A program made the position numbers and the translations under genes. Positions 1-31,902 of a stretch of 32,000 bases of DNA are shown here, piece by piece. The DNA comes from Thermosulfurimonas dismutans (lineage in GTDB: Bacteria; Desulfobacterota; Thermodesulfobacteria; Thermodesulfobacteriales; Thermodesulfobacteriaceae). The stretch spans positions 330,001 through 362,000 of the forward strand of contig NZ_LWLG01000001.1 of NCBI RefSeq assembly GCF_001652585.1. The letters are read 5' to 3'. Under the pieces are notes generated by a model. It ran no database searches. It was not told the origin of the DNA and saw only the letters and a program-made list of their open reading frames with translations. The first letter of the stretch is position 1. The number at the start of each line of letters is the position of its first letter.

Positions 1-202
1 GTATTTCGGCTTTCAATTTTTCGGAGAGGTTGGCGTAAAGCCAGACCTCTCTGTCCGGCGTTTCTGGAAAGGCCCGAGCGTAGCAGTAGACACAGGCATG
101 AAGACATCCCCGGGTAAGATTTATGGAAGGGGTGCCTTTGAGGCACCCGAAGGCCGGCTTTTTTAAAACTGGGGTTTTCCTTTCGATTGTCCGGAGATAC
201 AT
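1..202 (-). CDS. Radical SAM protein, N-terminal 67 codons (gene continues beyond the left edge)
   Basis: Minus-strand frame from ATG (plus 202-200) reads MYLRTIERKTPVLKKPAFGCLKGTPSINLTRGCLHACVYCYARAFPETPDREVWLYANLSEKLKAEI. CLHACVYC is a CxxxCxxC radical-SAM cluster motif in the usual N-terminal position. Absent from the ORF track because it runs off the window edge. Confidence 0.6.
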   Translation of the reverse strand, partial: MYLRTIERKTPVLKKPAFGCLKGTPSINLTRGCLHACVYCYARAFPETPDREVWLYANLSEKLKAEI

Positions 203-214
203 TAGCTTTAAAAG

Positions 215-223
215 ATTATAACA
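215..223 (-). promoter_or_regulatory. Extended -10 element (TGTTATAAT) for the radical SAM gene, giving a very short or absent leader
   Basis: Minus strand reads gaaTGtTATAATcttttaaagctaATG. The -10 ends 12 nt before the ATG and no Shine-Dalgarno sequence is present. No good -35 element. Confidence 0.35.
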
Positions 224-231
224 TTCGGGGC

Positions 232-259
232 TTGACAGCAGGAAAGGAAGGGTTACATT
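232..259 (+). promoter_or_regulatory. rrn promoter P1 candidate
   Basis: TTGACA (232-237), 16-nt spacer, TACATT (254-259), upstream of the 16S gene. Confidence 0.5.
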
Positions 260-272
260 AAAAGCCGTCAGT

Positions 273-285
273 CGCTCTTTAGAAC
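273..285 (+). promoter_or_regulatory. boxA-like antitermination box (leader, after P1)
   Basis: CGCTCTTTAGAAC compared with the E. coli boxA TGCTCTTTAACAA. Confidence 0.4.
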
Positions 286-327
286 CTGTCAGGTGTTAGA
301 GCCCCCAACGGGATGTCCGATGGGGGG

Positions 328-355
328 TTGACAGTCTTCTGTGAGTAGTTATAAT
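328..355 (+). promoter_or_regulatory. rrn promoter P2 candidate
   Basis: TTGACA (328-333), 16-nt spacer, consensus TATAAT (350-355), about 96 bp downstream of P1. This is a tandem arrangement like classical rrn P1/P2. Confidence 0.65.
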
Positions 356-375
356 AAGCTTCGCCTGGTTGAGGT

Positions 376-388
376 TGATCTTTGAAAA
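376..388 (+). promoter_or_regulatory. boxA-like box (leader, after P2)
   Basis: TGATCTTTGAAAA matches boxA TGCTCTTTAACAA at 10 of 13 positions. Confidence 0.35.
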
Positions 389-413
389 CTGAATAGTGGC
401 GCATGGGCAGGCC
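384..413 (+). other. 5' half of the 16S precursor processing stem (pairs with 2089-2120)
   Basis: Leader gaaaactgaatagtggcgcatgggcaggcc is nearly the exact reverse complement of trailer ggcctgtccatgtaagccactattcagctttc. This is the RNase III-type helix that brackets 16S. Confidence 0.6.
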
Positions 414-483
414 TCCGTGTTTCAGCCTCGGCGGCCTGGAATCTTCCCTTAAGGGTGATTCCGGAGCCGGGAGGTTTGAATTT

Positions 484-2056
<1,573 letters not shown>

Positions 2057-2132
2057 CTAAGGAGTAATCTTTAAGAACTTGAAAGAACGGCCTGTCCATG
2101 TAAGCCACTATTCAGCTTTCAGGGATCAACTT

Positions 2133-2145
2133 TGCTCTTTAAAAG
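2133..2145 (+). promoter_or_regulatory. boxA-like box in the 16S-tRNA spacer
   Basis: TGCTCTTTAAAAG compared with TGCTCTTTAACAA. Confidence 0.45.
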
Positions 2146-2173
2146 TTTTTGTTTGGGGTGAACGGGCAAGGTT

Positions 2174-2252
2174 GGGCCTATAGCTCAGCGTAGGTCAGAG
2201 CGCACGCCTGATAAGCGTGAGGTCGGTGGTTCGAATCCACCTAGGCCCACCA
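2174..2252 (+). tRNA. tRNA-Ile (anticodon GAT), CCA encoded
   Basis: GGGCCTATAGCTCAG...CTGATAA anticodon loop...GGTTCGAATCC...TAGGCCCACCA; cloverleaf folds by eye; located in the rrn spacer. Confidence 0.95.
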
Positions 2253-2277
2253 AATATTTGGGCCGTAGGGCCCTAGT

Positions 2278-2353
2278 GGGGGTGTAGCTCAGTTGGGAGA
2301 GCACCGGCTTTGCAAGCCGGGGGTCGACGGTTCGAGTCCGTTCACCTCCACCA
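2278..2353 (+). tRNA. tRNA-Ala (anticodon TGC), CCA encoded
   Basis: GGGGGTGTAGCTCAG...TTTGCAA loop...GGTTCGAGTCC...CACCTCCACCA. The G3:U70 alanine identity pair is present. Confidence 0.95.
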
Positions 2354-2407
2354 CCTGCGGGTTTAAGAAGAGAGTTTGGGCTCTCGCTTAAGCCCGCAGG
2401 TTGGGTA

Positions 2408-2420
2408 TGCTCTTTGACAA
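2408..2420 (+). promoter_or_regulatory. boxA box preceding 23S
   Basis: TGCTCTTTGACAA has a single mismatch to E. coli boxA TGCTCTTTAACAA. Confidence 0.6.
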
Positions 2421-2440
2421 GTGAATATGGGTATCCGTTT

Positions 2441-2458
2441 GGCATCTTGACCGGCCTG
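2441..2458 (+). other. 5' half of the 23S precursor processing stem (pairs with about 5525-5543)
   Basis: ggcatcttgaccggcctg compared with the reverse complement of cttgggccggcaaggtgcc. In addition, the mature ends GGCCAAGC (2480-2487) and GCTTGGCC (5493-5500) form helix 1. Confidence 0.55.
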
Positions 2459-2479
2459 AGCAAATTTTTAAAAGTTTGT

Positions 2480-5502
<3,023 letters not shown>

Positions 5503-5586
5503 CAGCTGGCTTTATTTAAGAATTCTTGGGCCGGCAAGGTGCCGGCGGTATACCCATATTCGCTTGTCCTAGATTTGGACAAGTTT

Positions 5587-5705
5587 CCCGGGTGCCCATA
5601 CCGGAGGGGCCACACCCGTTCCCATTCCGAACACGGTCGTTAAGCCCTCCAGGGCCGATGGTACTGGGGCGTTACCGCCCTGGGAGAGTAGGTCGGTGCC
5701 CGGGG
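5587..5705 (+). rRNA. rrf: 5S ribosomal RNA
   Basis: CCCGGGTGCCCATACC...CCCATTCCGAACACGG...GGGAGAGTAGGTCGGTGCCCGGGG; the two termini pair with each other. Confidence 0.93.
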
Positions 5706-7092: not shown

Positions 7093-7470
7093 ATGACACA
7101 TATAACGATACCCCCCTTGACAGAAAAATAAGCAAAAGCTATCCCTTCTCTTAAGGCCTAGGGGTAGAGGTGGGGTATCTATTTCGAAAACAGGGTTGAG
7201 ATTGTAAAGAACAACCTCAGAGAAGGGCTGGATGAGGGGGGCCGATCCTGCCTCACGGAGGCCTTCGGGCTCGGGGACGAGGAACGGCTGATCCTTCTCC
7301 TGGCCTTCGCCTTCGAAAGCGGAAAGCTTGTTCCTTCTCCCGATTTCCCCTGGGCTAAACCGAGGGCCGTAGCTCGCCTGGCCGGACTATATTACCGGAG
7401 GGGCCGAGCCCTTTTCGACCCCCGTGGGAGGCTTCTCCGTTTTCGACTTCTCAGATTTCTTCTGGGCTTT

Positions 7471-13255: not shown

Positions 13256-16200
13256 ATGCCCAGTCGACGGGATTTTCTTAAAATGGCGGGGATTGGCCTT
13301 ATGCTTGCGCCGGAAATCCTAAAGGGAGAGGCCAGAGGCGGAGTGAGGCTTCCGATGGTGGGCTATGATTCCAGGAAGTGCCTGGGGTGTCAGGCTTGTG
13401 TGCTGGCCTGTCAGAACGCAAGGGGCCTTTCCCCGGAAACGAGACTGATCGAGATCACGATTTCGGAGAAAGGCCGCTACCCGGAAGTTAAGCCGGAATT
13501 CAGGCTGCGGGTCATGGGGTGCGATTTCTGTATTATGAAGCTCGGTGAAGGGGAGGTTCCGACCTGTGTAAGGGTATGTCCCACCGGGGCGCTTAGCCTG
13601 AAAGGCTCTTACAAAATCAAGCCGGGAAACCTGCCCCTTTCAGGGACGGAAAGGGTGGTGCATACGGTGTGTTTGGCCTGTAACGCCCGCTGTGGCCTGA
13701 GGGTCCGGGTCAGGGGAGATGGGATTGCGGCCGTGGATGGCAATCCCTATCATCCCTATAACCGCGCAGGAAATCCCATCCCCTATGAGACCCCGGTGCG
13801 GGAGAGCCTTTCGGAGGCGGCTAGCACCTGCGGAAAACCCCAGTGTGATCGGGACTATTTAAAGAATACCTACCGGGTCCTTTTGCCCTTGAAGCGAAAC
13901 GGGCCCCGGGGCTCGGGCCGTTTTGTGCCCATCTCCTGGGATCAGCTTATAAGGGAGATCGCCGAGGGCGGAAAACTTTTTGCCCATCTCGGTGACGAGC
14001 GTCACTACCCGGGTCTCAGGGAAATACTTTCGGATGACCCCATTGACCCTTCTGCTCCAGAACTTGGGCCTAAGCGGAATCAGCTGGTCTGGCTTACCGG
14101 GCGCTCGCAGGCGGGCCGAAAGCACTTTATAAACCGGTTCGTGAAACAGGCCGTGGGGTCCGTGAACCACATCGGGCACACGGACATCTGCGGGATCGGT
14201 TTCCGGATGGGAAACTACATCCTTACCGACGGAAGGCAGGTGGAGCTTAAGGCCGATCTCAAAAATTCCCGTTATATGATCGTTTTCGGGGCCAACATCT
14301 TCGCCGCCGGGCAACCTGGAGTGAACACCGCCGGGGCTATCATAGCCCGTAGAGCCGTGGCCGGAAAGCTTAAAGTGGTCATCGTGGATCCTAGGGGGCA
14401 CGAGGGGCTAGCCATAGCCCACGAGTGGCTTCCGGTTAAGCCCGGGGAAGACGGGGCACTTGCCCTGGGGTTTTTGCGGGTCCTCCTTGAGGAAGGGCTT
14501 TACGATCGGGAGTTTCTGGAGCTTCCTTCAAAGGAAGCCGCTTTTCGTGCCGGGCGGAACCTTTACACCAACGCCACCCACTTAGTGGTGACCAATGCGG
14601 ACCATCCTCTTTACGGAAAAATTCTCAAAGTGAAGGATGTGGCCGGCGTTTCCGGAGCGGCCGAGGACCCAATGGTGGTTTCACCAGAAGGAAGGCTTTC
14701 TCCCGCCTCATCGGTGTCCTGCGGTGTGCTTGAGTGGGCCGGGGAAATTGAGCTTGCGGATGGCAGCCGAGTTCAGGCCAAGACCACCTTTCTTATTTTT
14801 AAGGAAGCCGTTTTTGAACATACGCTTGACTACTACGCCGAAAGATCGGGGATCCCGCGGGAGAAGATCGTAAAGATCGCCCGTGAGTTTGCGGCTCACG
14901 CCCCACAGGCCGCAGCCTTTGCCTATCACGGTGGCGGAAACTATCTGGGCGGGGCCTACGCCAGCTATGCCATTGCGCTTTTAAACGCTCTTGTCGGCAG
15001 TGTAAACCGTCGGGGAGGATATCTCCCTTCAGGTGGGGCCGCGGCCGACTGGCGGAGAGGTCTCTATGATCTTAAAGACTTTCCCGGGGCCTTAAAGCCC
15101 CGCGGGGTCAAGATCTCGCGTGAAAAATACGCCTATGAGAGGACCTCGGAATTCAAAAGAAGGGGGTATCCCGCGCCCCTTCCCTGGTTCCCCTTTACCA
15201 AGGGCGGCCTTTCGGTCTCGGCCATGGTGGGGATCGACCGCCAGTATCCCTACCCCGTAAAAATCCTTTTTACCTATTTCTTTAATCCGGTCTATAGCAT
15301 GCCGGGTGGGAAGAGGTTCGAGAGGACGCTCGCCGATCCTGAAAAGGTTCCTCTCCATGTCTCCATAGATGTCACCATAAACGAGACCAACATCTATGCA
15401 GACTACATTGTGCCGGATGTGACCTATCTTGAGGGGCACTACGGGTTTCTCAACCCCCACGCCCCGGGCGAGAGGTTCACCGCGGTGCGTACCCCGGTGG
15501 TGGAGCCTCTAACCGGCCGCACCCGGGACGGGCGCCCATTCTCGCTTGAGACCTTCCTCATTGATCTTGCGGAGTATCTCGGGCTTTCGGGGTTCGGGGA
15601 TAAGGCCATCCCGGGAGAGGACGGAAGGCTTTACCCCCTTCATCGGGCCGAGGATTTTTACCTGAGGGGGATTGCGAATCTTGCCGAAAACGCCGGGGTT
15701 CCTCCTGCGGCCGAGGAGGAAAGACGCTATGTGGAGGCCAACTATCCGGTTTCCCGCCATCGGGATCTTTTAAAGCCCCAAGAATGGGCCCGGTGCTGCA
15801 CGGTGCTCGCCCGGGGCGGGGTGTTTCTGTCTCCGGAGTCCCTCTTTGACGAAAACGGAAATTTTAAGAAGGGCCTTCCCTATGTGCTTTTCTGGAACGA
15901 GAAACTGGCAAGCTGTGGGGATGGTCTTTCTGGGAGACACTTCCACGGCACGGTTCGCTATCGGCCGGTCTCCATCCGTGGGCAGGAGGATTTCCCCTTC
16001 GTGCTTCTATCGCACAAGCTTGCCCTCCACACGCAGTCGCGGACCATCTGTTATCGGCAGGCCCTGGCCCTTTTCCCCGAGCCCCCGCTTCTCGTAAACC
16101 GGATGGATGCGGAGCGCCTGGGGCTTTCCGACGGGGATCGGGTGCGGCTTACCTCGGCCTCCTATCCCGAAGGGGTGATCGTGAGAATCATGGTCTCGGA

Positions 16201-16498
16201 AAGAATTCGGCCCGGATGCGTGGCCCTGCCCCATCACTACGGGCACTGGCAGCACGGGGCCTCGAAACTTCAGGTTTTGCGGGCTGAAGAGGTCTTTCTC
16301 GGGGGAGGCCGGGTGGCCCGTGGAGATCGGGTTCTTCCTGATCCGAGGAGGGCCCGCGGCGCAAATCCAAACCTTTTGAGTTTCCGTTCGACCGAAAGTT
16401 TTGATCTACCTCTGGTAGATACCCTAGGGGGCATTCCGGATTTCAGCCTCACCAAAGTACGGGTAGAAAAGGTCTCAACGGAGGGGAAAGATGCGTAA
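13256..16498 (+). CDS. Tat-exported fusion: 2x[4Fe-4S] ferredoxin domain joined to a TtrA-like (tetrathionate-reductase family) molybdopterin oxidoreductase catalytic subunit, 1080 aa
   Basis: Twin-arginine signal MPSRRDFLKMAG. Ferredoxin motifs CLGCQACVLAC and CDFC...CVRVCP. MopB FS0 motif CLACNARCG. Blocks that match my recollection of Salmonella TtrA: GNPYHP, PKRNQLV, NATHLVV, PWFPF, YIVPDVTYLE, RAEDFYLR. Confidence 0.8.
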   Translation: MPSRRDFLKMAGIGLMLAPEILKGEARGGVRLPMVGYDSRKCLGCQACVLACQNARGLSPETRLIEITISEKGRYPEVKPEFRLRVMGCDFCIMKLGEGEVPTCVRVCPTGALSLKGSYKIKPGNLPLSGTERVVHTVCLACNARCGLRVRVRGDGIAAVDGNPYHPYNRAGNPIPYETPVRESLSEAASTCGKPQCDRDYLKNTYRVLLPLKRNGPRGSGRFVPISWDQLIREIAEGGKLFAHLGDERHYPGLREILSDDPIDPSAPELGPKRNQLVWLTGRSQAGRKHFINRFVKQAVGSVNHIGHTDICGIGFRMGNYILTDGRQVELKADLKNSRYMIVFGANIFAAGQPGVNTAGAIIARRAVAGKLKVVIVDPRGHEGLAIAHEWLPVKPGEDGALALGFLRVLLEEGLYDREFLELPSKEAAFRAGRNLYTNATHLVVTNADHPLYGKILKVKDVAGVSGAAEDPMVVSPEGRLSPASSVSCGVLEWAGEIELADGSRVQAKTTFLIFKEAVFEHTLDYYAERSGIPREKIVKIAREFAAHAPQAAAFAYHGGGNYLGGAYASYAIALLNALVGSVNRRGGYLPSGGAAADWRRGLYDLKDFPGALKPRGVKISREKYAYERTSEFKRRGYPAPLPWFPFTKGGLSVSAMVGIDRQYPYPVKILFTYFFNPVYSMPGGKRFERTLADPEKVPLHVSIDVTINETNIYADYIVPDVTYLEGHYGFLNPHAPGERFTAVRTPVVEPLTGRTRDGRPFSLETFLIDLAEYLGLSGFGDKAIPGEDGRLYPLHRAEDFYLRGIANLAENAGVPPAAEEERRYVEANYPVSRHRDLLKPQEWARCCTVLARGGVFLSPESLFDENGNFKKGLPYVLFWNEKLASCGDGLSGRHFHGTVRYRPVSIRGQEDFPFVLLSHKLALHTQSRTICYRQALALFPEPPLLVNRMDAERLGLSDGDRVRLTSASYPEGVIVRIMVSERIRPGCVALPHHYGHWQHGASKLQVLRAEEVFLGGGRVARGDRVLPDPRRARGANPNLLSFRSTESFDLPLVDTLGGIPDFSLTKVRVEKVSTEGKDA

Positions 16499-17510
16499 AG
16501 TGATCCTTGGGTTCTTTTTGATTCTTGCGGTTTTTGGAACCGGAAACTGGGTGCGGGCGGAGAAGAAGATCTCGGGGCGGATGGTCTGGCGCTTAAGCAT
16601 CTCCCCTCCGCCCGGGGCCAAGAAAGCCCGCCTCTGGCTTCCCTATCCCCGGACGGACAGGTATCAGAGGATACAAGATCCAGAGGTTTTCGGTAATTAC
16701 GCCTATCACGGCCTTTTTACCGACGAGCACGGAAACCTCATTCTCTATCTCGAATGGGATCTTGACCGCACCACAAGGCCGGAGATGGTCCTTTCCTACC
16801 GGGTCTTGCGCTGGGAAGTGGTGCGGAATGATTTTCCTGAACCCCCTCAAAGCTTTAACCCCGAGAATTTCAAAGAGTTTCTTTCCGGAAACCGCTACGT
16901 AGAGGTTGGAGGGGAAGTTAGGAAACTAGCCTTGGAGATCACCCGGGGCAAGACCTCGGTTCGAGACAAGGCCCGGGCTATCTATGACTGGGTGGTGGAT
17001 AATCTCAGGCGGGATCCGAAGGTCAAAGGCTGTGGTAAGGGTATCGTTTGCAAGGTGCTAAAAAATCGGTGCGGGAAGTGTGCGGACCTCAACTCGGTCT
17101 TCGTGGCTCTGTGCCGGGCAGCTGCCATTCCGGCCCGGGAAGTCTTCGGTCTGAGGCTTGGCCAAGAGGGCGGGGAGAACCTCACTGGAGCCCAGCACTG
17201 CTGGACGGAGTTTTTCGTTCCAGGCTACGGGTGGGTGCCGGCTGACCCGGCCGATGTCCTGAAGACGGCCCTCATAAAGGGGCTCTCGCCCAGGGCTCCG
17301 GAATTGAGACCCGTGAGGGAATACTACTTTGGGGCCGTGGATGCCTACCGGGTGAAGCTCTCAGAAGGGAGAGACTTAATTTTCAATCCTCCCCAGGAAG
17401 GTGAGCCCGTAAACTATTTCGTCTATCCATATCTAGAGATAGACGGAAGGCCGGTGGATATCTTTCGTTCGCCAATTCTTGACTTTGAGATCACCTGGGA
17501 GAAGGAATAA
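16491..17510 (+). CDS. Secreted transglutaminase-like (Cys-His-Asp) domain protein
   Basis: The ATG overlaps the upstream stop (ATGCGTAA). Signal peptide MRKVILGFFLILAVFGTGNWVRA. Catalytic-core pattern GKCADLNSVFVALCRAAAIPAR...HCWTEFF...GWVPADPA. Confidence 0.75.
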   Translation: MRKVILGFFLILAVFGTGNWVRAEKKISGRMVWRLSISPPPGAKKARLWLPYPRTDRYQRIQDPEVFGNYAYHGLFTDEHGNLILYLEWDLDRTTRPEMVLSYRVLRWEVVRNDFPEPPQSFNPENFKEFLSGNRYVEVGGEVRKLALEITRGKTSVRDKARAIYDWVVDNLRRDPKVKGCGKGIVCKVLKNRCGKCADLNSVFVALCRAAAIPAREVFGLRLGQEGGENLTGAQHCWTEFFVPGYGWVPADPADVLKTALIKGLSPRAPELRPVREYYFGAVDAYRVKLSEGRDLIFNPPQEGEPVNYFVYPYLEIDGRPVDIFRSPILDFEITWEKE

Positions 17511-24321: not shown

Positions 24322-24781
24322 TCTCCTAGCTCACTTTGCCTTTGACCGTAAGTGGGCGCTTGTCGAGATCTAGGAGGCTCTTGAAGCCGAAAGGAAAGGC
24401 CTCATGATCTTGGCATCCGAAGAAGAAGGCTCCAAGCCCAAAACACCACACCACGGAGGTGCCAAAATGCCTAAACTGAAAAATCGAAGGCTTTCGACAA
24501 AGAGGCTTTGATCGAGGCCCATTACGTCCTTTCCGAGGCCTACCATGAGCTTGAGCGGTTACCTGCGGCCATGGAGGGGATAGCCGAGGCCCTGAACATG
24601 CTTTCCCGGTATGCGAGCCTTGAGCAAGCTCTTTTTACCGGGCACGCTAAAAACCGAATGTGCTTCCATAAATTTCCAAGGAAGAGGTGGAGAATTAGGA
24701 TCTATCTTACTTCTAGGTAATAGGTGGGGAAAATCAAATTATCAGGAAGAATAGATCTTCTGAAACCGTTGAGAATCAAGG

Positions 24782-24854
<73 letters not shown>

Positions 24855-29028: not shown

Positions 29029-29427
29029 ATGAAGCGTCGAGAAATATTAAAGTGGATATTCGCAGGGGGAGCGGCTGGAGTTTTTGGTTACATGGGCCTA
29101 AAAACTGTGGTCTATTTTCTCCCCAGACCGCCGAAAAAGGTTTTTGTCAAGGCCGAGGAACTCCCTCCCGCTGGAACTCTCAAGGTGAAAGAGGAATTCT
29201 TTATGGTGAGGCCTTCCGATGGTCATCTCCGAATTCTTTCCCGCCGGTGTCCTCACCTGGGCTGTACGGTGAACTATAGCTCTGGAGAAGATCTCTTTAT
29301 CTGTCCTTGCCATCAGAGCCGGTTTGCTCTGACCGGGGCCTATCTCTCCGGGCCGGCCAAAAAGGACCTTGTGAAAATCAAGTGGGAAAAAGTTGAGGGC
29401 GGAATCATCCTCGAAATTCCGGGTTAG
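29029..29427 (+). CDS. Rieske [2Fe-2S] protein, bc/b6f-type, with a Tat-like N-terminal anchor
   Basis: MKRREILKW followed by a hydrophobic helix. CPHLGC-x12-CPCH is the CxH...CxxH ligand pattern, including the extra disulfide cysteines typical of bc-complex Rieske proteins. Confidence 0.85.
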   Translation: MKRREILKWIFAGGAAGVFGYMGLKTVVYFLPRPPKKVFVKAEELPPAGTLKVKEEFFMVRPSDGHLRILSRRCPHLGCTVNYSSGEDLFICPCHQSRFALTGAYLSGPAKKDLVKIKWEKVEGGIILEIPG

Positions 29428-29434
29428 TCCCCGA

Positions 29435-30235
29435 GTGGCCTGGGGACTTTCAGCCAGTTTCCTCGTGGCGATCGTTACGGGTATTCTGCTGGCTTATCCT
29501 TTTAATGAGAGCTATCCCCTCCTTTCTACGGTGGGCATAGAGAACGTAGTACCCTTCGGGAGGTTTTTTCGAAGATTGCATTACTGGAGCGGATTCTTTA
29601 CCCTAATTCTCCTTTTCTATCATGCTGCCGAGACCTTAGTGGCCGAAGGGTACCGCAGACGCGATTGGGCAAGGTGGCTGGCCCTTTGCGCCACCCTACC
29701 GCTTTTGATTCTGATAGCCTTTACCGGCTACGTGGCCCGAGGCGACGAGACTGGACGGTTTGCCGGTTATATCGCCGAAAGTTTGGTGCTCAAGGTCCCC
29801 CTTTTAGGATCTCTGTTGAACGCTTGTCTTTTCTTGGTCCGGGAGTCCGGAGTCCATCGACCTTATCTCTTTCATTTCTACGCCTCGTTAGCCCTTTTCT
29901 TTGTTTCAGGAATCTGGCACTTCCGGCTACGGCGCTTGCCTCTAGAAGATCTCCTTGGGTGGCTCCTTGCCCCTATGATCCTGGCCCTGGTCTATCCCTT
30001 GGGGTTGCATGCCCCTGGACCATACCTTTTGATAAAAGGCCCCTGGTTTTTCCTAGGGGTACAGGAAGCCCTGAGATATTTTCCACCGGTTTGGGCTGGT
30101 ATTTTATTTCCGGCTTTAGGGATCTTGCTCTATGTGCTGGTTAAAATGGATAGTCTAAGGAAGTGGGTCTTCGGAGGCCTCCTAGTCTGGACAGGGGTTT
30201 ATATGTTCTTCATGGTTTACGGGCTTTTGCGATGA
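29435..30235 (+). CDS. Compact dihaem cytochrome b (b6-like part fused to a subunit-IV-like part), about 266 aa
   Basis: Helix B reads LHYWSGFFTLILLFYH (H-x13-H). Helix D reads HFYASLALFFVSGIWH (H-x14-H). IKGPWFFLGVQEALRY occupies the PEWY position. The start is ambiguous: GTG 29435, or TTG 29393 which would overlap the Rieske gene. Confidence 0.75.
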   Translation: MAWGLSASFLVAIVTGILLAYPFNESYPLLSTVGIENVVPFGRFFRRLHYWSGFFTLILLFYHAAETLVAEGYRRRDWARWLALCATLPLLILIAFTGYVARGDETGRFAGYIAESLVLKVPLLGSLLNACLFLVRESGVHRPYLFHFYASLALFFVSGIWHFRLRRLPLEDLLGWLLAPMILALVYPLGLHAPGPYLLIKGPWFFLGVQEALRYFPPVWAGILFPALGILLYVLVKMDSLRKWVFGGLLVWTGVYMFFMVYGLLR

Positions 30236-31479
30236 GAAATCATTGGTGGTTTTTAGTTCTAATGCTGGCCATGTTTGCGGCTCTGATCCAAGAGTTGCGT
30301 TTCAAACGCGCCGACAAGGTCTATACCTTAGCCTCCGGTCGGGTGGACATGTGTCTTGCCTGCCACAAGGAGGCTCCTGGGAAAGCCCATGCCCGAGGGG
30401 TAGTGGGGTGTGCGGACTGTCATTTGGGCGACCCCCTAACGGTAGAGAAGAAGCGGGCCCACCGGGGGATGGTGAAAAATCCGGGAGACCTTCGGGTAGC
30501 GGATCAGACCTGTGGTCGGCCGGAATGCCATCCGGGCTATGCCGAAAGGGTCAAAAAGAGCCTTATGGCCACCAACCGAGGTATTATTACTACTCTCCGT
30601 TATTACTGGGGGGAAATCGAAGACTTTCACGCTGAAGCTTCGGTGGAGACCCTAATGAAGACCGACGAGACCTCACCGGCCTTGGACTATTTCCGCAAAC
30701 TCTGTGGCACCTGCCACCTGTGGCTCCCCAAGGAGAAGCTTCCGGGATTTCTTAAGAAAAAGGGCGGAGGTTGCGTGGCCTGCCATTTGATTCCGGGTAA
30801 GAATAAGGATAAGAAGGTACATTCCATACTTACCCGAAAGATCCCGCTTGAAAATTGCGTGCGCTGTCACAACCGGAGCGGACGTATCGGATTGTCTTAC
30901 CAGGGGCTTTATGAAGACGAACAATACGGAGCGCCTATAGAGGAAGGCGAATTCGCGGCCGAAGAACTCGAAGACGGACGTTTTGTGGCCCGTATACCAC
31001 CGGATGTACATTTTAAGGCCGGTATGGTTTGCGTGGACTGTCACACCCAGAACGAGACCATGGGAGACGGCAAGGCCTACGCCCACTTTGAAGAATCGCT
31101 TGAGATCACCTGCGAGGCTTGCCACGAGGGGACAGGCCGAACCCGAAAGGGCACGCTCCTCACCAACCTCAAAGTAAAAGACGGAAAAATTTACTGGCAG
31201 GCCAAACTCAGTGGAAAAGAACTTGAAGTTAAAAGGCCGGATCCGGTGGCCTGCCGACATCCGGTACACCGCAGGCTCACCTGTGAGAGTTGTCACGACC
31301 AGCGGGTTCCCCAGTGCTTCGGTTGCCATGTGAGGCGGGATCCCCGAGAAAAACAGCTTGACAAGTTGTCTTTTAAGGAGACCCCCGGCCTCTGGGAGGA
31401 GTTCCGGAGCTATATGCGGGTTGAGGTGCCCACCCTCGGAGTTCGAGAAGACAAGGTAGTGATTTTGGTCCCAGGATGA
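30232..31479 (+). CDS. Multihaem c-type cytochrome (9 CXXCH plus 1 CX4CH) with an N-terminal anchor/signal; ends at an in-frame TGA
   Basis: ATG 30232 overlaps the cytochrome b stop (ATGA). Hydrophobic N-terminus WWFLVLMLAMFAALI. Haem motifs CLACH, CADCH, CGRPECH, CGTCH, CVACH, CVRCH, CVDCH, CEACH, CESCH, CFGCH. Confidence 0.85.
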   Translation: MRNHWWFLVLMLAMFAALIQELRFKRADKVYTLASGRVDMCLACHKEAPGKAHARGVVGCADCHLGDPLTVEKKRAHRGMVKNPGDLRVADQTCGRPECHPGYAERVKKSLMATNRGIITTLRYYWGEIEDFHAEASVETLMKTDETSPALDYFRKLCGTCHLWLPKEKLPGFLKKKGGGCVACHLIPGKNKDKKVHSILTRKIPLENCVRCHNRSGRIGLSYQGLYEDEQYGAPIEEGEFAAEELEDGRFVARIPPDVHFKAGMVCVDCHTQNETMGDGKAYAHFEESLEITCEACHEGTGRTRKGTLLTNLKVKDGKIYWQAKLSGKELEVKRPDPVACRHPVHRRLTCESCHDQRVPQCFGCHVRRDPREKQLDKLSFKETPGLWEEFRSYMRVEVPTLGVREDKVVILVPG

Positions 31480-31515
31480 CAGGACTTCATTTCCTTTCTT
31501 TCCCCGGAGGGGAAG

Positions 31516-31902
31516 TTGGAGAAGGAATTTAAACGCATCACCTGGTCTTTCATGTATCCCCACAATACCGGCAAGGCCCGTACTTGTAAGGACTGTCACC
31601 AGTCAGCCAAGACCGTGGGCCTGGGTTACGGTAGCCTTACCTACTTAGGAAAGGGTCGCTTTCGATTCACGCCGGCTGAGGCTCCCTCGGAGTTGCTCGA
31701 AATTGAACACGGGCTTTCGGCGGTGGTGGATCTTTCGGGGAAACCCTTGGTGAACTTCCGCCCCGGGGTGAGAGGCTTTAATGGGAAGGAAATTCGACAA
31801 ATTTTAAGGGTTGGACTCTGCCTCTCGTGTCACAGAGACTTTTCCGATCCCGTTATGCGGAACTGGCCTCCCAGGAAGCCCTGTCCGGTTTTCAAGGAGT
31901 AG
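31516..31902 (+). CDS. Dihaem cytochrome c segment in the same frame as the preceding cytochrome. It is probably that protein's C-terminal extension, separated only by TGA 31477-31479.
   Basis: CKDCH and CLSCH motifs. No signal peptide when read from TTG 31516. No stop between 31480 and 31902 in the frame of the upstream gene. Confidence 0.55.
   Translation: MEKEFKRITWSFMYPHNTGKARTCKDCHQSAKTVGLGYGSLTYLGKGRFRFTPAEAPSELLEIEHGLSAVVDLSGKPLVNFRPGVRGFNGKEIRQILRVGLCLSCHRDFSDPVMRNWPPRKPCPVFKE

Follow-up and report, generated by a model that had tools for sequence, protein, structure and literature searches.

A stretch of 32,000 nucleotides from Thermosulfurimonas dismutans (NCBI RefSeq assembly GCF_001652585.1, contig NZ_LWLG01000001.1, positions 330,001 to 362,000 of the forward strand), hereafter called the window, contains a gene for a multihaem c-type cytochrome with a single in-frame UGA codon at 31477-31479. 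Comparison with relatives makes it highly probable that this UGA is a selenocysteine (Sec) codon with its own insertion hairpin, in a gene that encodes a twelve-haem cytochrome. The recoding site, with its Sec insertion sequence (SECIS), is by the same comparison ancient and widespread in a family of ExtM-like dodecahaem cytochromes. Recoding as Sec had been raised as one possibility in the initial annotation of the window. It is now supported by the TGA and Cys codons of the related loci, the intact downstream tails, a discrete hairpin test, the low ratios of nonsynonymous to synonymous substitution rates (dN/dS), and the independent contig L081.

Gene structure and the in-frame UGA

The upstream open reading frame (ORF) runs on the forward strand from ATG 30232 to the TGA at 31477-31479 (415 codons), and the frame past the TGA is open for 140 more codons, up to TAG 31900-31902. 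The chance of a 140-codon open frame after a stop is approximately (61/64)^140 = 0.001, or about one in a thousand by our own arithmetic. Read through as one unit, the full recoded gene (30232..31902, +) would encode an ExtM-like dodecahaem cytochrome c of 556 aa, with 11 CXXCH motifs, one CX4CH motif, and Sec at residue 416 in the motif VPG-U-QDF. Ten haem sites are upstream of the UGA, nine of them CXXCH and one CX4CH (CGRPECH). The post-UGA coding tail (31480..31899, +; 140 aa) contains the other two, CKDCH at 31585-31599 (haem site 11, +) and CLSCH at 31819-31833 (haem site 12, +), together with a match to the ExtM profile and a conserved cysteine, Cys551. The 12 haem motifs are invariant across 81 sequences. 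The predicted tryptic peptide across the junction in the window is VVILVPG-U-QDFISFLSPEGK.

Residues 2-23 (30235..30300, +) form an N-terminal hydrophobic helix, a predicted export signal or membrane anchor, with a hydropathy of 2.46 and a predicted local distance difference test (pLDDT) score of 88-93 in the AlphaFold2 (AF2) model. In the post-UGA tails the maximal hydropathy over 15 aa is 0.81, versus 2.46 for the N-terminus, which agrees with the earlier remark that the downstream part has no signal peptide. The end of the ORF at the TGA, the open downstream frame, and the CKDCH and CLSCH motifs were likewise recovered at the same positions as in the initial annotation.

Conservation of the UGA codon and selection on the tail

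Homologues were searched over 5.8 billion proteins, and 80 loci were then taken from species-representative genomes. Two classes of homologues were found. The first comprises proteins of about 415 aa from Thermodesulfobacteria, with 63-98% identity, all ending at the same point as the window ORF. Among them are RefSeq entries from Thermosulfurimonas sp. F29, Thermodesulfatator indicus, and T. atlanticus annotated as "hypothetical proteins"; the length given by RefSeq for the orthologues is 414 aa, and database gene calls stop at 414-416 aa. The second class comprises proteins of 567-600 aa with about 50% identity, which span both halves and cover 96-100% of the recoded product. All 15 full-length homologues that were aligned have Cys at the UGA position (TPG-C-QD versus VPG-UGA-QDF). 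The absence of a Cys or redox motif around the codon had been held against Sec; this argument falls away, since every full-length homologue carries Cys at exactly that residue.

The codon at this position is TGA in 42 of the 80 species-level loci and TGC or TGT in the remaining 38, with no other sense codon in the clade. Whether relatives would show Cys, UGA, or an ordinary sense codon here had been the question put to an orthologue alignment, and the answer from the 80 loci is Cys or UGA only. The 42 relatives' loci and the window are referred to below as the 43 TGA forms. An in-frame tail of 140-180 codons with two CXXCH motifs is present in 43/43 of them. The tails have dN/dS values of 0.04-0.37 (0.08 for the window versus its three closest relatives), which are indistinguishable from those of the upstream part. 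L081, an independent vent-metagenome contig 99% identical to the window, keeps the TGA, with four synonymous differences in the surrounding codons. UGA also ends this gene as a genuine stop codon in 19 of the 43 TGA-form genomes, and it is therefore not reassigned.

Neighbour joining grouped all TGA forms in a single deep clade that extends to identities as low as about 47% and includes just one Cys form, the revertant L034. The sister clade holds the other 37 Cys forms, from Desulfobulbales and cable bacteria, and parsimony requires only two state changes. The revertant, at position 7113 of locus L034 (metagenome-assembled genome (MAG) contig JALVVK010000134.1), is the only Cys form (TGT) nested in the Sec clade. 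It keeps the flanks of that clade (LVPG-C-QDM, SFLD) and the 5' arm of the hairpin, and its 3' arm has changed from GGAGG to ACAGG. L034 looks like a recent Sec-to-Cys conversion followed by decay of the SECIS.

A SECIS-like hairpin downstream of the UGA

Folding bore out the hairpin arms and the GGA loop that had been described at 31491-31527, starting 11 nt past the UGA. The minimum free energy (MFE) structure is an extended hairpin (31491..31527, +) with the outer arms UUCCUU (31491-31496) and AAGGAA (31522-31527). The best register of the inner hairpin in the window (+) pairs UUUCCCC (31499-31505) with GGGGAAG (31509-31515) around the loop GGA (31506-31508). The core of the SECIS-like hairpin that is conserved among the relatives extends over 31497..31516 (+), with the stem 31497-31503 / 31510-31516 and the loop 31504-31509. 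The form of the outer stem is not conserved beyond the closest relatives; an A-to-G change at 31523 in L081 keeps the pair as U-G.

A discrete test was applied to all forms. It calls for a perfect stem of 5 bp or more and a 3-8-nt loop that has a G in its first two bases and starts 16-37 nt past the codon; it is a stricter form of the bacterial SECIS (bSECIS) criteria that Zhang and Gladyshev reportedly set in 2005. The test was positive in 43/43 TGA forms, with the loop starting 19-26 nt past the codon, versus 1/38 Cys forms. The spacing and loop, which had seemed only loosely compatible with a bacterial SECIS in the window, thus agree with the bSECIS criteria in all 43 TGA forms. When synonymous codons were shuffled so that the protein was kept, the mean z was -1.05 for the TGA forms versus -0.12 for the Cys forms, so that only the TGA forms showed an excess of structure. 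The window itself had a z of -2.07, and 4% of its shuffles were equally stable.

An RNAalifold consensus of 14 Thermodesulfobacteria-type sequences contained seven pairs, with 93% of the cells paired. Compensatory changes in this group affect pair 24-37 (UA/CG) and pair 21-40 (CG/GC). The second group has a consensus stem of 5 bp capped by the loop UGGAU; at one pair of this stem, 15 sequences have UA and 14 have CG. The fraction of paired cells was 93-97% in register versus 39-79% with the partners slid. The registers differ by sub-clade, with loop offsets of 19-20 versus 24-26 nt.

Evidence for Sec decoding and alternative explanations

Some of the results weigh against a Sec codon with its own hairpin. 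None of selA, selB, selC, and selD was found in the 32-kb window. The hairpin is unremarkable versus dinucleotide shuffles of its 76-nt context (z -1.16), and an Rfam scan of 31380-31640 at E <= 10 gave no match. The total MFE of the 66 nt past the codon fails to separate the TGA forms from the Cys forms; this is because their GC contents differ, and hence the synonymous shuffles and the discrete test were used. The compensatory changes are few and clustered by clade, which indicates few independent events, so the contrast in presence and absence (43/43 versus 1/38) is the stronger argument. The real significance of the hairpin comes from the comparison with relatives.

The search for Sec machinery was also extended to the related loci. 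Neither the window nor the 80 loci yielded a tRNA-Sec, and no Sec machinery was found in the flanks of the TGA-form loci fetched. A tblastn search with an approximate E. coli SelD query gave a match only in L069, a Cys-form locus. This SelD homologue of Bacterium BMS3Bbin14 (L069:6106-7104, -) has 39% identity to E. coli SelD and is about 3 kb from the Cys-form cytochrome gene. Thermodesulfatator indicus, which carries the TGA-form orthologue P0022, has a tRNA-Sec (PMC12439589), and an MccSep of the Sec type, together with a SECIS-like element, is known from T. dismutans (PMC13510729). These two reports give indirect support for Sec decoding.

Three other explanations of the UGA were considered. 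The TGA could be a fresh nonsense mutation, a pseudogene lesion, or a sequencing error, which would leave a truncated 10-haem protein and a tail of decaying, untranslated DNA. Such a reading would account for a single stop that interrupts an otherwise continuous homologue, and for database gene calls that end at 414-416 aa. The same TGA, however, occurs in 42 other species-level genomes and in the independent assembly that is 99% identical, and the synonymous differences around the codon exclude a systematic artefact shared among the assemblies. None of the 43 forms has lost the tail or either of its haem motifs, the tail is under purifying selection (omega about 0.08), and the TGA state is ancient on the tree. 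Conservation of the TGA, selection on the tails, retention of the TGA in L081, and the deep clade leave practically no probability to a mutation, a pseudogene, or a sequencing error. The suggestion of a fresh nonsense mutation in the initial annotation is thereby refuted. It is also very improbable that there are two genuine genes, with a stop at the UGA and a tail of 128-140 aa made from TTG 31516 by way of the GGAGG in the hairpin, which would then regulate this ribosome-binding site (RBS). GGAGG and TTG do lie within the hairpin in the window, and ORF callers give 31516-31902 as an ORF. Both the TTG at +13 and its GGAGG are nevertheless peculiar to the window, and the 43 TGA forms share no start codon or RBS, which disposes of the earlier suggestion that the hairpin sequesters an RBS. 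Past the UGA, the first in-frame start lies at different positions in the 43 forms (+4, +6, +10, +18, +20, +25, and +46), mostly without a motif like that of Shine and Dalgarno, and the common ATG at +25 is an internal Met that is present in Cys forms too. The tails have no signal peptide or hydrophobic segment and would hence be unable to receive haem, and the homologues are single chains with Cys at the junction. A separate downstream gene with its own signal peptide, which had been named as an outcome that would speak against recoding, was found in none of the 43 TGA forms.

Translation through the UGA without Sec has a low probability, if a somewhat higher one than the two explanations above. 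A near-cognate tRNA for Trp, Cys, or Arg, or a local recoding signal, would then give a full-length, selenium-free protein. The UGA of the TGA forms is always followed by C, and UGAC is a weak termination context in E. coli. The Sec machinery was also not seen directly for the source genome, of which the 32-kb window was searched. Against leaky read-through, the strict alternation of UGA and Cys, with no other sense codon in the clade, is a signature of Sec. A SECIS-type hairpin with a G-rich loop is present at the canonical distance in 43/43 TGA forms and is lost in the Cys forms, including the nested revertant L034, and related genera decode Sec (PMC12439589, PMC13510729).

Family identity and the three-gene unit

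The joined 556-aa product matches the NCBIfam model of ExtM (NF040943) with 274 bits, along the whole length including both halves; the tail alone matches profile positions 478-585 of 599. With 11 CXXCH and one CX4CH motif in 556 aa, the product resembles the ExtM type, a twelve-haem c-type cytochrome of about 600 aa. It does not reach the ExtM equivalog cutoff of 800 bits. As 274 bits is far under this cutoff, the protein belongs to a related family and is not ExtM. The context of the ext cluster (ExtKL, ExtN, and the porin ExtI) was not found around the gene, and the only conserved neighbours are a Rieske protein and a cytochrome b. A true ExtM was also sought among 10 diverse representatives of the superfamily, none of which reaches the cutoff (222-349 bits).

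The cytochrome gene is the third of a unit of three co-oriented genes whose ends overlap. Gene 1 (29029..29427, +) encodes a Rieske [2Fe-2S] protein (Pfam PF00355, 45 bits), for which the NCBIfam models of bc1/b6f Rieske proteins score below cutoff. Gene 2 (29393..30235, +) encodes a b6/ExtP-like cytochrome b (Pfam PF00033, 45 bits), which scores 63.5 bits against NCBIfam ExtP, with a cutoff of 290. The Rieske and Cytochrome_B Pfam matches are above the gathering scores. The stop of the cytochrome b gene and the start of the cytochrome c gene overlap as ATGA (30232-30235), which suggests translational coupling within the unit. In Thermodesulfatator autotrophicus (L012), a Rieske protein is encoded at the same position upstream of the cytochrome. 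The cytochrome b gene adjoins the cytochrome gene in L012 and L081, and the trio is kept in both. Only these three genes are conserved together in relatives, and the flanks are housekeeping genes that differ between genera. This pattern points to a compact bc-type complex with a dodecahaem cytochrome c subunit. By their sequences, the Rieske, cytochrome b, and cytochrome c genes are a bc-type quinol oxidoreductase module, with quinol oxidation as the predicted activity.

Synthesis of the selenoprotein may be pictured as follows. The hairpin just past the UGA would act as a bacterial SECIS, with its core at 31497-31516 and its G-rich loop 24-26 nt past the UGA, and would recruit SelB carrying Sec-tRNA(Sec). 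The ribosome would then insert Sec at residue 416 and continue to the TAG at 31900. The SECIS/SelB step is based on the comparative evidence and the established SelB/SECIS mechanism. The product would be one polypeptide of 556 aa, exported or anchored by its N-terminal helix, and the 12 c-type haems would be loaded in the periplasm. Together with the Rieske protein and cytochrome b, it would form a complex for electron exchange with the quinone pool, in which it would be the multihaem cytochrome c subunit.

Structural context and possible role of residue 416

A first AF2 model from 19 sequences was too poor (pLDDT 51) and was rejected. The model from 105 sequences had a pLDDT of 80 and a predicted template modelling score of 0.80. 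In this model, residue 416 is in a four-residue turn (G-U-Q-D) between the strands 408-414 and 419-423, in a beta-rich C-terminal region. A sequence search of the PDB gave only weak matches to the haem motifs of NrfA, and in a Foldseek search of the PDB the best hit to the model had an E of 0.55, which is not significant. When 1.84 billion cluster representatives were searched with a profile, a large superfamily emerged, with 390 clusters at E <= 1e-30. In the best 150 representatives, the sequence at this turn is mostly PG-M-(I/V) (about 90) or PG-C-Q (about 35); His, Gly, and Tyr are rare. Many members of the Met branch have about 900 aa (e.g. P0153, P0158, and P0166), with an N-terminal extension of about 320 aa before the 12-haem module. 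Two cluster representatives from other superfamily branches, P0132 (423 aa) and P0200 (549 aa), terminate at ...PG, directly before the equivalent of position 416. They may be UGA forms outside the clade studied.

The candidates for axial ligands are seven conserved distal His, Met112, Met277, position 416, and Cys551, which gives 11 for the 12 haems. Cys551 is conserved in both the Met and the Cys/Sec branches. Met112 and Met277 show no variation in the Met branch, and 5-6 of 36 Cys-branch representatives have His in their place, as would be expected where His/Met axial ligation gives way to bis-His. Residues specific to the Cys/Sec branch are Arg392, Arg396, Tyr232, Gln417, and, mostly, Lys156. 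They resemble the anion pockets of sulfur-converting His/Cys haem enzymes.

From these sequence patterns and the model, we infer that residue 416 may be part of a haem site that catalyses the conversion of an anionic chalcogen compound (polysulfide, thiosulfate, tetrathionate, or selenite, for example). By analogy, it would be either a distal axial ligand, as in the His/Cys haems of TsdA or SoxAX, or a nucleophile beside a Cys-ligated haem, perhaps the one ligated by Cys551, like MccSep. A more specific proposal is that Sec416 itself is the distal axial ligand, in place of the Met or Cys that relatives have at this beta-turn. The result would be a natural His/selenolate-ligated haem c at the active site of a quinol-linked (Rieske / cytochrome b) enzyme, which would convert polysulfide, thiosulfate, or similar sulfur compounds. 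This proposal is tentative and, in our estimate, rather unlikely. Two considerations tell against a catalytic role. The assignment would be drawn from substitution patterns and a haem-free AF2 model of a protein without a similar solved structure, and the Met found at the position in most relatives could be purely structural.

Other features in the window and in the family models

The rRNA operon is at 1-5600 of the window, with tRNA-Ile(GAT) at 2174-2252 and tRNA-Ala(TGC) at 2278-2353 in its spacer, and tRNA-Phe is at 24780-24854 (-). A molybdopterin oxidoreductase of 1080 aa is encoded at 13256-16498 (+). Its best match is the tetrathionate reductase TtrA (554 bits, cutoff 1750), with weaker matches to PhsA and ArrA. 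The first approximately 150 aa match 4Fe-4S proteins of the NrfC/HybA type, so that an Fe-S subunit appears to be fused to the catalytic subunit. A 339-aa ORF at 16491-17510 (+), without an NCBIfam match, overlaps this gene and may encode a membrane anchor. A scan of the window for other pairs of ORFs split by TGA gave only a spurious one, an alternative frame of a kefC-like gene.

The NCBIfam models NF040968 (FeS_ExtO) and NF040967 (ExtN) match multihaem cytochromes at the same profile positions with near-equal scores, for example 42.0 versus 43.6 bits at positions 20-209 of 416 and 415, respectively. The true Rieske protein of the window has no match to NF040968, which is named "iron-sulfur cluster-binding subunit ExtO". 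This name may be unsuited to what the model covers.

Significance

In at least 43 species-level genomes, this gene is annotated as a 414-aa "hypothetical protein" plus an orphan fragment. Thermosulfurimonas, Thermodesulfatator, and SEEP-SRB2-like and other deltaproteobacterial MAGs are among the carriers. Recognition of the Sec codon would restore a 12-haem respiratory subunit. The cytochromes would make up a second selenoprotein family of multihaem cytochromes, which is unrelated to the MccSep characterised in 2026 and is not in the inventory of 2026 (PMC13188914). They belong to a compact Rieske / cytochrome b complex in sulfur-disproportionating and sulfur-cycling bacteria, such as Thermosulfurimonas, Desulfocapsa, and the cable bacteria. 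The sulfur-transforming enzymes of such bacteria are poorly known, and the reactive Sec/Cys residue with its gained Arg/Tyr pocket points to a testable catalytic site. If Sec416 were indeed a haem ligand, the enzyme could fill a gap in the pathways of sulfur disproportionation or respiration of Thermodesulfobacteria and their relatives. The alternation of Met, Cys, and Sec at one turn might also serve as a natural series for chalcogen tuning of a c-type haem site.

Comparison with known systems

MccSep, or ExtKL (GSU2937-2936), of Geobacter sulfurreducens is a multihaem cytochrome c selenoprotein with polysulfide reductase activity. It is the only characterised multihaem-cytochrome selenoprotein, and its Sec325 is next to Cys239 (PMC13510729). 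The neighbouring genes in Geobacter encode ExtM, ExtO (Rieske), and ExtP (cytochrome b) (PMC5877670, PMC13510729). MccSep and the predicted selenoprotein of the window are similar in several respects. Both are periplasmic multihaem c-type cytochromes, with one in-frame UGA that causes annotation as two genes and a SECIS-like hairpin within about 30 nt of the UGA, and both have homologues that form Sec/Cys pairs. The Sec follows Gly in a loop of the beta-rich C-terminal part, D-G-U-P in MccSep and P-G-U-Q here. Both are found in Desulfobacterota, including Thermosulfurimonas, and the MccSep gene of Geobacter is immediately upstream of that for ExtM, the closest named relative of the window protein. 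However, there is no detectable sequence relationship between the two, and the ExtKL model NF040886 is absent from the NCBIfam matches of the window protein (E <= 0.01). MccSep has five haems and a Sec loop of the DGUP type, whereas 12 haems and PGUQD are found here. It is a soluble tetramer, in contrast to the N-terminal anchor and the Rieske / cytochrome b operon described above. Its Sec is beside a Cys-ligated haem, whereas the residue homologous to Sec416 is Met in most of the superfamily.

ExtM (GSU2935) is the 12-haem cytochrome of the Geobacter extHIJKLMNOPQS cluster (PMC5877670). It is the top-scoring family over the full length of the window protein, including the post-UGA tail. Both have 12 haem sites and are associated with a Rieske protein (ExtO in Geobacter) and a cytochrome b (ExtP). 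There is no report of ExtM as a selenoprotein, and the unit described here has three genes only, without the porin, rhodanese, ExtKL, or ExtN.

TsdA, SoxAX, and DsrJ are sulfur enzymes with His/Cys-ligated catalytic haems. The cytochrome of the window resembles them as a c-type cytochrome from sulfur-metabolising bacteria with a lone conserved Cys outside CXXCH and co-conserved basic residues, and the position is Cys or Met among relatives, a kind of exchange that axial ligands show. The three enzymes are unrelated to it in sequence and fold, however, and ligation by residue 416 is putative. To our knowledge, no Sec variant at the ligand position is known for TsdA, SoxAX, or DsrJ. The one report of a native Sec-ligated haem concerns a P450, of the ncCYP subfamily M (PMC11703216). 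In that case too, UGA is found at the position of the haem-ligating Cys of relatives, and database entries are truncated at the TGA. The two differ in that the P450 has a b-type haem, the P450 fold, a cytoplasmic location, and a proven ligand role, whereas Sec ligation here is one of two readings.

The hairpin itself may be compared with the SECIS of E. coli fdhF and the bSECIS model. As in these, it is inside the coding sequence immediately past the UGA, with a start 11 nt past the UGA, an apical loop at 19-26 nt, a G among the first loop bases, and an upper stem of 5-9 bp. Its primary sequence is unrelated to that of the fdhF SECIS, and two hairpin registers are used in two sub-clades.

Among multihaem cytochromes, the prokaryotic selenoprotein inventory of 2026 contains ExtKL, the GSU2204 family, and an OTR-family octahaem cytochrome, and nothing ExtM-like (PMC13188914). 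The models of the GSU2204 family (NF041027) and the OTR-family octahaem cytochrome (TIGR04315) are not among the NCBIfam matches of the window protein. The family may already be listed by Haft and Tolstoy (2025) or in a groundwater-MAG survey. From the comparison with these systems, it appears to be a new selenoprotein family within a known kind of system.

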